Assembly: GCF_001945605.1 (NCBI RefSeq)
Contig: NZ_MPKA01000065.1
Coordinates: 45,656 to 77,655, forward strand
Length of the DNA: 32,000 nucleotides
Source: Dubosiella newyorkensis
GTDB taxonomy: Bacteria > Bacillota_I > Bacilli_A > Erysipelotrichales > Erysipelotrichaceae
Direction of reading: 5' to 3'
The translations under genes were made by a program, and so were the position numbers. The notes beneath the pieces are model-generated. The model saw nothing but the letters and a program-made list of their open reading frames with translations, was not told the origin of the DNA and did not search any database. Shown piece after piece: positions 11,356-16,094 of the stretch. Numbering within the stretch: the first letter of the stretch is position 1; each line of letters starts with the position of its first letter.

Positions 11356-11381
11356 TCAGTATAAGTCGCTTTTCTTTTTTT

Positions 11382-12332
11382 TTAGCTCAGAGTCGATAAT
11401 GCTCTCATAACGAGATCGATATCTTTATTTTCAAGTTCCTGAATAATGTGTAAATAAGTTTTTTGAGTAGTCGTCATGCTGGCATGACCTAATCGTCTTG
11501 CTACACTGGCAGTCGATACACCCGCGAACAATAATAAGGATGCATGGGTATGACGAAGTCCATGGATCGTAATGACCGGAATATTGGCTTCTTTGCAGTG
11601 GCGTTCCAATACATCGTTGACTGTTGAATTGTAAATTTTCTTATTTACAAATATTGGACGATCTTCGGGAAGACCTTGAATCAAGGATGAAAACTGGACG
11701 ACAGTTTGCCAATCGATTTGGATCTTTCGAACTGAAGAGTGGTTTTTCGTGGGTGAAAATCCACCGTTTCCTTTATAATCCCATGTTTTTGATACTGATA
11801 CTGTTTGATGGGCGAAATCGAAATCTGCTGGAGTGATCGCTAAAGCTTCTGAGAAGCGCATTCCTGTTTTCGCAACAAGTAGAATAAACCAATCCCATGT
11901 GATTTCTTCTTTCAAGTAAAGTGTTGATAATAACGTATGCAGTTCGTATTGATTCAAATATTTCAGCTTTTTAGGTCGTGGTTGTTTTCCTTTGATGATC
12001 GCTTTTCGAGTTGGATCTCTAGGAACCAATCCTTCATCGACCGCATCCATGATCGCGCCTTTTAGTTGATGATGAAAGTCCATCGTAGTTTGACGCTCAT
12101 GTTCGATCGCATACTCGTTTAAAATTTGTTGGTATGTGATCCGAGACAAATCACAAAGTTTTAAGTTTGGGGCTAGCTTCCGAATCCACGAAAGACTCAT
12201 ATAATACTTATTCATTGTTACATCTCGGATAGCACCTTTCTTATAAACTTCGATCCATTTTTCAAAATAATCACAAAACAAAATTGTATTAGTTACTTCA
12301 TTAATCATTCTTTTTTCTCCATCTTCGTTCAT
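11382..12332 (-). CDS. tyrosine site-specific recombinase (phage-integrase/Xer family) linked to hsdS cassettes
   Basis: Catalytic signature: AKTGMRFSEAL (Arg I), HGLRHTHASLL (His-x-x-Arg), LGHASMTTTQKTYLH (His/Tyr nucleophile). ATG 12332 shares ATGA with the hsdS' stop. An alternative ATG at 12308 has a GGAG SD 8 nt upstream. Confidence 0.85.
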   Translation of the reverse strand: MNEDGEKRMINEVTNTILFCDYFEKWIEVYKKGAIRDVTMNKYYMSLSWIRKLAPNLKLCDLSRITYQQILNEYAIEHERQTTMDFHHQLKGAIMDAVDEGLVPRDPTRKAIIKGKQPRPKKLKYLNQYELHTLLSTLYLKEEITWDWFILLVAKTGMRFSEALAITPADFDFAHQTVSVSKTWDYKGNGGFSPTKNHSSVRKIQIDWQTVVQFSSLIQGLPEDRPIFVNKKIYNSTVNDVLERHCKEANIPVITIHGLRHTHASLLLFAGVSTASVARRLGHASMTTTQKTYLHIIQELENKDIDLVMRALSTLS

Positions 12333-12829
12333 TGCGACTTATACTGATGAAGGGTGATAAGTTTATCAGCATGATACATAAATTGCCCTATATTAAACTG
12401 TTCATATTTTTGTTGTGGAATTTTTATTATAAAATTTCTAGCAGTTACTCCAGTTATTCCCTTTATGGATGATCCTTGAAGATTTAAATTTCCGTTTAAA
12501 GTCTTGTAACATAAAAACGTTCCAAATAGAGTATCAATATTTAAATTACTAAAGGATATAAAATCTTGACTAGTAGCATAACTATAAGGGAAATATCCAA
12601 CTTTTCCTACACCAACTCTAGTTACTATTGCTATTGAATTTGCAGGAACTTGCTTTGAAGCTGAGTTGTTCAAACCATTTTCAGAAATATACTTTTTAGG
12701 TTTTATATCAAATAATTTCCCCACCACTAAATCAGATGATTGAATCCACGGTAAATTTCCATCCCAATACTTCTTAACTGAAGTTTTTGGAGTACCACCT
12801 CCAAAAAACTTATTAGCAATATCTCCCAA
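12329..12829 (-). CDS. hsdS: Type I specificity subunit half-module (single TRD), 5'-truncated, possibly a silent cassette
   Basis: It has the (A)WEQRRLGDI box, a TRD with the GGGTPKT...YWDGNLPWI motif, and the conserved LITLHQYK end. The frame is open from 12865 but holds no ATG/GTG. The only start candidate is TTG 12829, which has no SD. Confidence 0.6.
   Translation of the reverse strand: MGDIANKFFGGGTPKTSVKKYWDGNLPWIQSSDLVVGKLFDIKPKKYISENGLNNSASKQVPANSIAIVTRVGVGKVGYFPYSYATSQDFISFSNLNIDTLFGTFLCYKTLNGNLNLQGSSIKGITGVTARNFIIKIPQQKYEQFNIGQFMYHADKLITLHQYKSQ
12343..12360. repeat. direct repeat A, copy 1 (encodes the ITLHQ box at the end of hsdS')
   Basis: ACTGATGAAGGGTGATAA is identical to 12906-12923. 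Extended to 24 nt there is one mismatch (12337-12360 vs 12900-12923). Confidence 0.9.
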
Positions 12830-12848
12830 CCTACGCTGTTCCCAAGCA
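12828..12848. repeat. direct repeat B, copy 1 (encodes the AWEQRR box at the start of hsdS')
   Basis: AACCTACGCTGTTCCCAAGCA is identical to 13379-13399. Extended to 26 nt there is one mismatch (12823-12848 vs 13374-13399). Confidence 0.9.
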
Positions 12849-12888
12849 GTAACTTTTTGGTAATTTTAAATTTCACTCACTTATAATT

Positions 12889-13491
12889 TTAATTTTCTAA
12901 CTTACACTGATGAAGGGTGATAAACTTGTCTATATCCAAAAATAAATTCCCGATTTTATTCTGTTCTTCTATACCTGGAATTAGAATAACTTGTTTAAAA
13001 AAATCTTCAGGAACTAATTCGTTCATCATAGTGCCAAGTTTAGTAGATTGATTAAGAATAGGCCTAAATATAGATTCTAAATAGAACAGTTTTTTTGTAA
13101 ACAAAGGATTGAGCATCGATACTGGCCTAATTGATGAAAAACGAGGAGACATTAATCCAATACCCCTAGTATTTACAACAAATCTACCATGAGCAAATTG
13201 CTTATTAGAATGGCCTTCGAAACCTGCATCTCCTATTCTCAATACTTTATAAGACTTAACGGAAGTCTCTGCAGATCCATTTCCATCTTTTTTATATTTC
13301 ATAGTTGCTACGGACAATGTTTTATCAACTGTTATTCCAATTAAATTACGTTCATTATTGATTTTATATAGTTCTCCAAACCTACGCTGTTCCCAAGCAT
13401 CGTTAAAGCCCTTGAATCGAATTTGAGGAACATTAGACTGTTTTTGATGGATTTTTGTACTATTTACTTGTTCATTCTTGAATGTTTCCAT
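12889..13491 (-). CDS. hsdS: Type I specificity subunit, half-size (single TRD), expressed copy
   Basis: ATG 13491 lies 2 nt after the hsdM stop. It has the N-terminal box PQIRFKGFNDAWEQRRFGEL, one TRD, and EEQNKIGNLFLDIDKFITLHQCKLEN* at the end. At 200 aa it is about half of a normal HsdS. Confidence 0.8.
   Translation of the reverse strand: METFKNEQVNSTKIHQKQSNVPQIRFKGFNDAWEQRRFGELYKINNERNLIGITVDKTLSVATMKYKKDGNGSAETSVKSYKVLRIGDAGFEGHSNKQFAHGRFVVNTRGIGLMSPRFSSIRPVSMLNPLFTKKLFYLESIFRPILNQSTKLGTMMNELVPEDFFKQVILIPGIEEQNKIGNLFLDIDKFITLHQCKLEN
12906..12923. repeat. direct repeat A, copy 2 (end of hsdS)
   Basis: Identical 18-mer to 12343-12360, in the same orientation, with a period of 563 nt. 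Confidence 0.9.
13379..13399. repeat. direct repeat B, copy 2 (start of the hsdS TRD)
   Basis: Identical 21-mer to 12828-12848, in the same orientation, with a period of 551 nt. Confidence 0.9.
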
Positions 13492-13493
13492 AA

Positions 13494-16040
13494 CTAGTAC
13501 CCTAATAAGCTTTTAAAAGCTTCCAGTCCTTTCATGTCATATTCATTTCCTGTTAGATCATCGATCATTTTGGCAAGTTCTTGTTCAGTCTGATGGATTT
13601 GATCATCTAAATCATTCAGAGTTTCGCTATATTTATCTTCCAATTGCTCTAATTGTTTTTTAAGTTTTTCCATTACATTTTGAGGGATTTGAATGAGTTG
13701 ATCCATTAATGGACTTATCCACTTTTCATAGACGAGCGCCTTAGCTTCTTCAATTGAAAGAGATTCAAGTTTATCTTTTGTCATAGCATGAATATTTTCC
13801 TTGCTTGTTTTGATTTCTTTTTGGATAGCTTTCTGCTCTTTCAAAAGTTTATTCGCTTCGTTTAATTTCTTAAGCAATTCATCATCATCTTTATCCTTTT
13901 TCAATTCTTTAATTCTATTAGTTAAGTTAGAAGTGACGAATTGTGTTCCTTCCTCATTGGCTAAATTCTCTTTTTCTTCTTCGTCTAAATTTTCAAGAAT
14001 TTCTTGGATTTCATTATCAATTTGATAAATATGTTGCTCTAACTGTTCTATTTTTTTGAATTCTTCGGTAAAATATCGTCGTTCGACCAATTCAAATGGA
14101 ATAATATGACCTTTCCAACCTTCTTGGGTTTCTACGTCTTTTCCATTCTTTTTTTTCATCACTAAATTTGGATCGACTTTGGTCAACGCTCTTTCAGATT
14201 CATTTTGAATATTTTCCAAATCCCCAAGAATGACTTTCCAGTGATTATCTAAAATTTGATATGCCTCATAACGATCGATCAACGAAAACTCTTTTAACTT
14301 ATGAAATAAAAGATTTCCTAAATCATCTTCTTCTCGATTAAGATCGACCTCCATCATCCCTTCGATCAAACGCTGTTTTAAATCCGATTCAAACGAGTTA
14401 GACTCCTTATAAAAAGCTTTCTTAAACGAGTGAATATCGGAATCTTCTTCAAAAATCTGTTTTAAATCATTTCCTTTTACACTAACGTACGAGTCGTTCT
14501 TTTCATTAAATAGTTTCTTTTTTAGATTTGGGAAATTTTTCCAATAGACATCAAATCGAGAAAGTTCCGATTTCGGAATTCCTCCATACATTGAAGCATA
14601 CAAATCCCATGTTTCCGTAGGTTCAGAAGAATCTACATACCGAGGAATATTCAAGTTATAGTCATTTGCTCGAATTTCTTCTAAAGAAACAGTTCGTGAA
14701 AACTTATCTATTGTCTTTCTAGATACCACTACATCTCGAATTCTTTTGATATCTGATGCTCGTAAAACATTACTTTTGCCTGATTTCTCAAAATATTTGG
14801 AACTATCCACGATTAATACATCGTTATTCTCCCGTTTTTGTCGTAATAACATAATAATCGTTGGTATACTCGTCCCATAAAAAATATTCGCAGGAAGACC
14901 GATTATCGTATCGATATTATTATTCTCAATCAAGTTTTTTCGAATCTCGCCTTCCTCGCCACCACGAAATAATACACCGTGAGGAAGAACGATAGCCATA
15001 ATGCCATCCGGCTTTATATGATACAAATCGTGTAATAAGAACGCGTAATCCGCCTTTGTCTTTGGAGCTACTCCATAACGACGATACCGAGGATCGTTTC
15101 TTTTCCCTTCCGGATCCCATTTTTGCGAATAAGGGGGATTAGATACCACAGCATCCACATATAGTGGCATTCCTAACTTTGTTTCATTAGGTGGCCAATC
15201 ATCTTCCAAAGTATCAGCATTTCGAGTAAAGATATTGCTCGGCTTGATTCCACGCATGATCAAGTTCATCCGCGTTAAGTTATATGTATTTCGCTTCAAT
15301 TCTTGGGCATAATACTGAATTCGATCTTTGCTTTCTAGATATCGCGAAGCACTTTCTCCAATATTCAACAACAAAGAACCTGACCCACTCGTCGGGTCGT
15401 ATATTTTAATTTCTTTTCGATCTTTTAAATGGTTCGCGACCAAGTCAGACATCAACACTGAAACTTCATGCGGTGTATAGAACTCACCAGCCTTCTTTCC
15501 AGCATTCGCGGCGAACATTCCAATTAAATACTCATAAACAAAACCAAGCACATCATAGTCCTGCTTACTATCCATTGGAATGTCCTTGATCAGTTGCAAT
15601 AAATTAATGATCGCTTTCGTTTGAGATTGAGCACTATCTCCTAATTTACTCAATCCCGTTTCCAAAGTTTCAAAAATTCCATCAAACACATCGCGATGTG
15701 TATTTGAAATCAAACGACTAAAGGCAGACAATGCTTCACGTACATTTGAAACATCAAATTCCTTTTCATGTTCGATCCAAGTAGAAAACAAATTAGGATA
15801 ACTAATAAAATATCCCAGACGATCTTGAATATATCGAACCGTTTCCTGATCTTCTTCAGTCACCAATGGTAACGTTTCTTCATCCCATCCATCATTAATC
15901 AGAAGTTTTAATTCCTGCTCTGACAAGTATTTGTAAAAAATAAACCCTAGAATATAATCTTTATACTCACTTGCCTCGATTTTAGAACGCATCTGGTTTG
16001 CCGATTCCCATATTTTGGCAGCCAATTGCTGTTTATTCAT
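13494..16040 (-). CDS. hsdM: Type I restriction-modification N6-adenine DNA methyltransferase subunit, long form (848 aa)
   Basis: HsdM_N-like start (MNKQQLAAKIWESANQMR...YILGFIFYKYLSE), AdoMet motif I IYDPTSGSGSLLL and motif IV VVSNPPYS. A ~360-aa E/K-rich C-terminal extension follows. The start is set to ATG 16040, 8 nt after GGAGG; the ORF-track start at 16055 is a TTG. Confidence 0.9.
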   Translation of the reverse strand: MNKQQLAAKIWESANQMRSKIEASEYKDYILGFIFYKYLSEQELKLLINDGWDEETLPLVTEEDQETVRYIQDRLGYFISYPNLFSTWIEHEKEFDVSNVREALSAFSRLISNTHRDVFDGIFETLETGLSKLGDSAQSQTKAIINLLQLIKDIPMDSKQDYDVLGFVYEYLIGMFAANAGKKAGEFYTPHEVSVLMSDLVANHLKDRKEIKIYDPTSGSGSLLLNIGESASRYLESKDRIQYYAQELKRNTYNLTRMNLIMRGIKPSNIFTRNADTLEDDWPPNETKLGMPLYVDAVVSNPPYSQKWDPEGKRNDPRYRRYGVAPKTKADYAFLLHDLYHIKPDGIMAIVLPHGVLFRGGEEGEIRKNLIENNNIDTIIGLPANIFYGTSIPTIIMLLRQKRENNDVLIVDSSKYFEKSGKSNVLRASDIKRIRDVVVSRKTIDKFSRTVSLEEIRANDYNLNIPRYVDSSEPTETWDLYASMYGGIPKSELSRFDVYWKNFPNLKKKLFNEKNDSYVSVKGNDLKQIFEEDSDIHSFKKAFYKESNSFESDLKQRLIEGMMEVDLNREEDDLGNLLFHKLKEFSLIDRYEAYQILDNHWKVILGDLENIQNESERALTKVDPNLVMKKKNGKDVETQEGWKGHIIPFELVERRYFTEEFKKIEQLEQHIYQIDNEIQEILENLDEEEKENLANEEGTQFVTSNLTNRIKELKKDKDDDELLKKLNEANKLLKEQKAIQKEIKTSKENIHAMTKDKLESLSIEEAKALVYEKWISPLMDQLIQIPQNVMEKLKKQLEQLEDKYSETLNDLDDQIHQTEQELAKMIDDLTGNEYDMKGLEAFKSLLGY

Positions 16041-16094
16041 ATCCTTTTCCTCCAATACAAATCTATTTATTAAACATCTCTTCTGTTTATTCCC

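Follow-up and report, generated by a model that had tools for sequence, protein, structure and literature searches.

Two described systems come closest to the Type I restriction-modification (RM) locus analyzed here, which consists of hsdM, two hsdS-like reading frames (S1 and S2), and the gene for a tyrosine recombinase (the integrase) from Dubosiella newyorkensis. The locus lies in a stretch of 32,000 nt (assembly GCF_001945605.1, contig NZ_MPKA01000065.1, positions 45,656 to 77,655), which as a whole is called the window, and coordinates are counted from its first letter. To our knowledge, the pneumococcal tvr locus is the only one for which experiments have demonstrated recombinase-driven shuffling of target recognition domains (TRDs) at direct repeats. 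In tvr (SpnIV), TRDs are shuffled through excision and reintegration at two types of direct repeats with a common core (Kwun et al. 2018, PMC6265443). Circular intermediates are formed, and the loss of a circle leads to shortened loci (PMC6265443). In Efa4125I and EfaH25I of Enterococcus faecalis, which have the organization hsdSA-efiA-hsdSB, inversion at 5'-ATCACTCTTCATCAGCGTAAGTTAGAACAG... and 5'-TGGGAACAGTGTAAG was reported based on PCR and sequencing (Huang et al. 2020, PMC7672463).

The locus in the window is best explained as the collapsed, hsdR-less state of a tvr-like Type I locus of mouse-gut D. newyorkensis, in which TRDs would be shuffled at direct repeats of the EfiA site type. The probability assigned to this reading is about 0.7. 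No publication on restriction-modification in Dubosiella was found in a literature search.

Intact locus in D. newyorkensis and the arrangement in the window

Exact look-up of the integrase and the flanking hydrolase retrieved ~20 contigs with the same chromosomal neighbors as the window: the hydrolase at one end of the locus, and DUF1643, IspG, and PBP at the opposite end. One HsdS bears the NCBI name Dubosiella newyorkensis. The whole locus, with the same chromosomal flanks and four TRD slots, is spanned by three contigs, L091-L093. Its order is hsdM (848 aa), hsdS (413-432 aa), an NmFic-type fic, hsdR (1040 aa), a terminator-like hairpin, two start-less cassettes, and the integrase gene. 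The L092 HsdR matches TIGR00348 with 362 bits and includes the EcoR124_C domain. The full hsdS contains slots 1 and 2 in the order leader-A-TRD-B-linker-A-TRD-B-tail, where the linker is 123 nt and in frame. The silent array contains slots 3 and 4 in the order A-TRD-B-spacer-A-TRD-B, where the spacer is 77 nt, out of frame, and interrupted by stops. A and B designate repeat boxes encoding AWEQRR and ITLHQ, respectively. All eight boxes have the same direction and share the core CAG(C/T)(G/A)TA(A/G)GT in the same reading frame. The TRDs found in the slots are designated as TA, TB, TC, and TD. The window contains the following parts of this locus.

13494 to 16055, minus strand: hsdM, an 853-aa open reading frame (ORF) from TTG; the 848-aa form starts at 16040
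12889 to 13491, minus strand: S1, a hybrid truncated hsdS of 200 aa with an ATG start
12900 to 13397, minus strand: A-TA-B cassette of 498 nt, identical in slots 1 and 3 of L092
13373 to 13399, minus strand: A box copy 1 (AWEQRR), left flank of slot-1 type; exchange interval CTTGGGAACAGCGTAGGTT at 13397 to 13379
12900 to 12923, minus strand: B box copy 1 (ITLHQ), right flank of slot-3 type (TGTAAGTTAG); exchange interval ACCCTTCATCAG at 12918 to 12907
12849 to 12899, minus strand: silent-array spacer, 51 nt, with stop codons; the next cassette is out of frame; same in all conspecific contigs
12329 to 12865, minus strand: S2, silent slot-4 cassette with TRD TB (Pfam Methylase_S, 7.7e-16); same as slot 4 of L091-L093
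12822 to 12848, minus strand: A box copy 2, left flank of slot-4 type
12337 to 12360, minus strand: B box copy 2, right flank of slot-4 type (TATAAGTCGC); adjoins the integrase gene
11382 to 12332, minus strand: tyrosine recombinase (integrase), 316-aa ORF (Pfam Phage_integrase, 9.8e-21)
11356 to 11369, plus strand: inverted B4 core with inner flank (TCAGTATAAGTCGC), perfect over 14 nt, opposite 12334-12347

The comparison by BLAST revealed no single-nucleotide polymorphism between the window and L092 in 16.2 kb, and the only difference is a 4,995-bp rearrangement. One alignment shows 100% identity over 13,987 nt, as far as CATCAG of the slot-1 B box, and the other 100% identity over 2,196 nt, from the slot-3 A box onward. 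The 498-nt A-TA-B cassette is common to both alignments, whose offset is 4,995 bp, and the sole "mismatch", at 12906, reflects the flank base in which slot 3 differs from slot 1. The arrangement of L092 is TA,TA/TA,TB, in which the slash separates slots 1 and 2 from slots 3 and 4. When the DNA between the slot-1 and slot-3 TA copies is removed from L092, exactly the order hsdM-leader-A-TA-B(slot-3 flank)-spacer-A-TB-B-int remains. The best reading of the window is an L092-type locus after a 4,995-bp deletion of slot 2, fic, hsdR, and the terminator, with the crossover somewhere within the cassette at 12900 to 13397. It follows from such a deletion that S1 would join the 5' end of hsdS to the cassette of slot 3, and that S2 would be the silent cassette of slot 4 without any change. 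S1 is composed of the hsdS leader, the slot-1 A-box flank, the TRD TA, and the slot-3 B-box flank. Neither hsdR nor fic was found anywhere in the window; tblastn with the L092 HsdR gave no match.

Direct repeat boxes and proposed cassette shuffling

The A repeat 21-mer AACCTACGCTGTTCCCAAGCA has only two copies in the window, at 12828-12848 and 13379-13399, and so has the B repeat 18-mer ACTGATGAAGGGTGATAA, at 12343-12360 and 12906-12923. Allowing one mismatch, the A repeat extends to 27 nt (12822-12848 and 13373-13399; period 551), one nucleotide longer than the 26 nt in the original prediction, while the 24 nt given there for the B repeat (12337-12360 and 12900-12923; period 563) were reproduced. 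The positions and periods of both pairs were correctly predicted, and 0/100 shuffled sequences contained any match. Both repeat pairs are in direct orientation inside minus-strand genes. The earlier observation that no inverted copy is present holds for full-length A and B copies in the window, but not for the B-box core, of which a perfect 14-nt inverted copy lies at 11356-11369. An inverted hsdS copy just outside the window had also been considered, which would have restored a normal inversion model; no inverted A or B box was found in the 20-kb conspecific loci, and inverted hsdS copies flanking the recombinase are absent from both the window and these loci.

The boxes are closely similar to the crossover sites of the EfiA inverton. 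The EfiA inverted repeat ATCACTCTTCATCAGCGTAAGT corresponds to the Dubosiella B box ATCACCCTTCATCAGCGTAAGT, and the inverted repeat TGGGAACAGTGTAAG to the A box TGGGAACAGCGTAGG. Compared with the published EfiA repeats, of the types ATCAC(T/C)CTTCATCAGCGTAAGT and TGGGAACAG(T/C)GTA(A/G)G, 21/22 and 13/15 bases are identical. In both systems, a tyrosine recombinase of ~308-309 aa adjoins hsdS, and the TRDs of either half are exchangeable. They differ in geometry: the E. faecalis repeats are inverted around hsdSA-efiA-hsdSB and lead to inversion, whereas the full boxes of Dubosiella are all direct, with only the 14-nt inverted core beyond the integrase, and allow excision or deletion. A tyrosine recombinase acting on direct sites gives excision, not inversion, for topological reasons; the direct boxes of Dubosiella therefore point to excision rather than inversion.

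Four TRD cassettes were recognized in the conspecific contigs: TA (457 nt), TB (469 nt), TC (463 nt), and TD (514 nt). Each shows 99.6-100% nucleotide identity across contigs, yet the slots they occupy differ. Besides L092, the following arrangements were observed.

L091, L093: TA,TD/TC,TB
L004: TB,TA/TD,TC
L001: ?,TC/TD,TA
L008: ?,TB/TC,TA
L095: TB,TD/..
L002: ../TB,TD
L003, L006: ../TA,TD

All of TA, TB, TC, and TD were seen in both N- and C-terminal slots. The same split and the same TRD order in all relatives, together with a lack of junction or circle reads, had been named as the sign of a fixed state; at least seven arrangements were observed among the conspecific contigs.

The flanks of the boxes delimit the exchanged segments. 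The left flank of the A box and the right flank of the B box are strictly slot-specific, while the inner flanks of both boxes are strictly TRD-specific. The exchange is therefore limited to CTTGGGAACAGCGTAGGTT (19 nt) in the A box and ACCCTTCATCAG (12 nt) in the B box. Ordinary homologous recombination needs longer stretches than 12 or 19 nt. Among contigs that end inside the locus, 8/15 end within 40 nt of a box, which is only suggestive of alternative continuations within samples. One metagenome was scanned at the slot-3 left flank for non-canonical junctions (circles and 3+1 forms), and only a single, canonical contig (L101), starting exactly at the B2 box, was obtained; over short spans, circle junctions are not distinguishable from canonical slot junctions.

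Two lineages of D. newyorkensis, one represented by L091 and the other by L092 and the window, are ~2% apart on the hsdM-side flank, while their TRD cassettes and integrase region are 100% identical. The identity points to a recent exchange, or a sweep, of the cassette-integrase module. In HsdS proteins of ~600 aa (P0001, P0012, and P0053), three TRD modules follow one another in a single frame, joined by full linkers, and P0001 has two copies of one TRD. Unequal exchange at the boxes seems to have given rise to these proteins.

The boxes are conserved beyond this species. Loci of other species whose integrases share 72-81% amino-acid identity with the window integrase were surveyed, and 135 B sites from 59 loci and 107 A sites from 44 loci were collected. 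Their consensus sequences are CTTATCACCCTTCATCAGCGTAAGT for the B box and GCTTGGGAACAGCGTAAGTT for the A box, with a shared core, CAGCGTAAGT, in the same frame in both. Conservation extends to all codon positions including the third. The boxes are interpreted as putative recombination sites. In the loci of this integrase family, the central linker is always 123 nt, the silent-array spacers are 54-90 nt, and the integrase always adjoins a B box. Relatives of the integrase were found on at least 540 genome contigs and among at least 8000 proteins, and they sit in Type I loci with two layouts, either direct silent arrays or an inverted cassette beyond the integrase. In a protein search meant to place the integrase relative to E. 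faecalis EfiA, the top 120 matches were gut sequences with 77-100% identity. The family is broad, and no pneumococcal names appeared in the protein search lists. A tblastn search against plasmids found relatives from Enterococcus raffinosus (66%), Listeria innocua (63%), and Ligilactobacillus salivarius (55-58%).

In its architecture, the locus is most similar to tvr. Both are Type I RM loci in which TRD segments lie between two types of direct repeats sharing a short core, and a tyrosine recombinase is linked to each of them, with a terminator or attenuator upstream of it; a gene of the Fic/Doc fold is likewise present within each locus. In both, TRD positions vary between near-identical genomes, and shortened loci correspond to excision without reintegration. 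The combination seen in tvr, direct boxes with a shared core and the same TRDs at different positions in closely related genomes, is thus present in Dubosiella. There are also clear differences. In Dubosiella, the silent cassettes and the integrase gene come after hsdR, and the excisable segment carries hsdR and fic. Each Dubosiella TRD has both box types and occurs in N- and C-terminal slots including slot 1, whereas tvr TRDs, whether N- or C-terminal, keep to their own class and the first TRD never moves. The box sequences and the HsdS family differ as well; the TRD peptides in the supplement of Kwun et al. belong to an HsdS family different from that of Dubosiella. The Dubosiella Fic is NmFic-type, and no Phd-like partner was seen.

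The original prediction offered three explanations for the two cassettes. Recombinase-mediated deletion or excision-reintegration comes closest, with its direct boxes conserved at the DNA level, their near identity to proven sites, and permuted TRDs; what it did not foresee is that the arrangement itself appears to be the product of a 4,995-bp deletion. The linked tyrosine recombinase most likely acts on the A and B boxes. DNA between two direct boxes would be excised as a circle, and TRDs would be swapped on its re-entry at a box of the other type (out at A boxes and in at a B box, or the reverse). Such a swap would leave the linker, tail, and spacer in place, matching the observed architecture. 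If the circle were lost, a short locus would result, as in the window, which may go back to a crossover inside, or at the borders of, the identical TA copies that occupy slots 1 and 3 of TA,TA/TA,TB. With the residual A/A and B/B pairs, the window locus could still release 551-bp or 563-bp circles and have TA and TB change places.

Genes of the window locus and accessory features

The genes hsdM and S1, the S2 frame, and the tyrosine recombinase gene are all on the minus strand, and the locus block has 30-35% G+C against ~45% in the surroundings. The 848-aa form of HsdM is 100% identical to the L092 HsdM (tblastn), and it includes Pfam HsdM_N and N6_Mtase domains and matches TIGR00497 with 318 bits against a cut-off of 243. 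It is predicted to be the methyltransferase subunit, Type IC-like over residues 1-486. The matches in PDB, 3lkd and the M subunit of EcoR124II (1e-74), cover only residues 2-486. Residues ~487-853 (window 13494-14595) constitute a coiled-coil-rich C-terminal extension of ~370 aa, for which neither a convincing Pfam match nor a PDB match was found. In at least 20 loci from other species, it is conserved along its entire length at 55-62% identity.

S1 is probably translated, as its ATG is located 2 nt past the hsdM stop codon. The S1 protein ends with ITLHQCKLEN* and the S2 frame with ITLHQYKSQ*; both ORFs stop 4-5 codons past ITLHQ. In intact hsdS, the conserved helices are ITLHQRKCDQLKNIKKSLLEKLF... 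and ITLHQRKVEKLKKVKASLLEKMFV*, and the distal half RK..LKK..LLEKLF is absent from S1 and S2; each of the two is short of ~18 aa at the distal end of the helix. An HsdS with two TRDs and complete conserved helices is thus encoded in L091-L093 and not in the window, where S1 has a single TRD and S2 lacks a start.

The S2 frame opens past TAA at 12868-12866 and has no ATG or GTG start. Its sole start candidate is TTG 12829, and the next ATG is 16 codons ahead of the stop. All of this had been noticed earlier, as had the lack of relationship between the TA and TB TRDs, of which Pfam Methylase_S matches only that of S2. From its sequence context, S2 is classified as a silent cassette, not a gene, and S1 and S2 should not be counted as two hsdS genes in annotation. 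A rescue of S2 by frameshift was considered, with GTG 12876 followed by an A5 run in which a +1 A insertion would give MKFKITKKVTAWEQRR..., and was rejected, as no conspecific silent array differs in this spacer and the spacers of other species are equally non-coding.

The real start of the integrase is likely ATG 12308 (308 aa, typical of the family), with GGAG 8 nt upstream. With this start, the integrase gene does not overlap the S2 stop codon. The inverted 14-mer sits 12 nt beyond the integrase stop codon (11382-11384), and the integrase gene is bracketed by the inverted repeat. A counterpart of this inverted repeat, at least 10 nt long and formed by the B core upstream of the integrase gene and a site past its stop codon, was found in 52/71 family loci, compared with 1-2/71 controls. 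It could be a self-inversion switch or a vestige of an inverted hsdSB.

In L092, fic (14653-15276) is located between hsdS and hsdR and encodes an NmFic-type adenylyltransferase (295 bits) with the motif HPFREGNGRSGR. It is missing from most of the loci of other species; L080 alone has one. The position brings to mind PrrC in EcoprrI and the Doc-like TvrT in tvr. The terminator-like hairpin of L092 (18454-18478; 9 pairs and a T run) separates hsdR from slot 3. It is lost from the window, and the integrase gene is now directly downstream of hsdM-S1-S2.

Alternative explanations and implications

Several observations weigh against the reading of a collapsed shuffling locus. No circle, junction read, or within-culture heterogeneity was observed. 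The integrase gene lies outside every excisable segment, unlike tvrR. TA is present three times in L092, and a simple excision-reintegration does not give such a triplication, which therefore indicates a non-reciprocal event such as conversion or unequal exchange. The deletion in the window spans 498 bp of perfect identity, and RecA-type recombination could therefore suffice without the integrase.

Both the identity between the deletion ends and the triplication are also accommodated if the permutations arise from general homologous recombination, conversion, or inter-strain transfer, with the integrase as a bystander or a remnant of island integration. The 100% identity of cassettes and integrase between lineages with a 2% flank difference likewise hints at horizontal exchange. 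General recombination is nevertheless quite improbable, given exchange intervals of 12 and 19 nt that fall under the usual homology requirement and the constant adjacency of the integrase to a B box. Moreover, the boxes are conserved at synonymous positions, too, in dozens of species with integrases of just 72-81% amino-acid identity to this one, and in E. faecalis these sequences have been proven to be sites of site-specific crossover (PMC7672463). The short form could conceivably also be an assembly collapse. The real genome would then be TA,TA/TA,TB, with its threefold 498-nt TA repeat collapsed and fic-hsdR left on another contig. The window equals L092 at every base outside the gap, the gap ends exactly on a perfect repeat of ~0.5 kb with three copies in L092, and exact look-up of the S1 protein in the gene collection found no record. 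However, De Bruijn assemblers normally break at such repeats instead of skipping 5 kb, and shortened loci of this kind are documented for tvr (PMC6265443). An independent short form, hsdM-TD-int, with a different cassette, is present in another lineage (L005 and L007) from other samples and assemblers including conservative Logan contigs. L100, a seeming short form without TRD1, was set aside, since it has a scaffolding N gap inside. A collapse in assembly is thus judged unlikely.

The two remaining explanations of the original prediction concern the protein products. Truncated half-HsdS subunits of EcoDXXI and EcoR124I deletion derivatives reportedly act as homodimers, and such dimers are said to work on symmetric targets. 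If S1 and S2 were both translated, half-HsdS homo- or heterodimers with HsdM could form a working methyltransferase. S1 resembles these proteins in having a single TRD after a normal hsdS start downstream of hsdM, to which its start codon is coupled, and after the deletion no terminator stands between hsdM and S2. Unlike proteins of the EcoDXXI/EcoR124I type, which keep a complete conserved region, S1 has lost the distal half, and hsdR is absent; one TRD with a complete helix, as in functional half-subunits, is not what S1 encodes. S2 lacks an ATG or GTG start and is a silent cassette in all full loci, and both frames stop before the coiled-coil half of the helix. Two working half-subunits are therefore unsupported and very improbable. 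It is hardly conceivable that a full-length hsdS (TRD1-CR-TRD2-CR, where CR is the conserved region) was split in place through the loss of ~25-30 central helix codons. The B-to-A distance is indeed 77 nt in the window versus 123 nt in intact hsdS genes. However, the same 77-nt sequence makes up this junction in every conspecific contig, in the slot 3/4 array downstream of hsdR. The junction does not derive by deletion from the 123-nt in-frame linker, which is a different sequence, and its flanks are of the slot-3 (B right) and slot-4 (A left) types, not slot-1/slot-2. This explanation is ruled out because the junction is the invariant spacer of the silent array.

A collapsed shuffling locus is thus preferred for the window. 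The Dubosiella locus would represent a second direct-repeat system, unrelated to tvr, that uses proven EfiA-type sites, and the population data map the exchange intervals to 12 and 19 nt. A broader proposal is more speculative and, on balance, doubtful: the all-direct four-slot layout may be a distinct design widespread in gut Firmicutes, in which any TRD fits either HsdS half and each switch excises a circle with hsdR and fic, so that restriction and the Fic toxin would be unplugged during the change of specificity. In this proposal, the inverted core conserved in the family would let the enzyme flip its own gene or turn a direct array into a convergent inverton by one inversion. If true, the unplugging of hsdR and fic during each specificity switch would be a built-in restriction alleviation. 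A failure mode is built into such loci, the irreversible loss of hsdR, which the window would exemplify. Surveys of phase-variable Type I systems look for inverted repeats, and direct-repeat loci have been deemed rare, at 1/46 checked (PMC7672463). Many gut bacteria carry relatives with direct silent arrays. If these loci are active, epigenetic and restriction phase variation of gut commensals would be under-counted by inverton-based screens.

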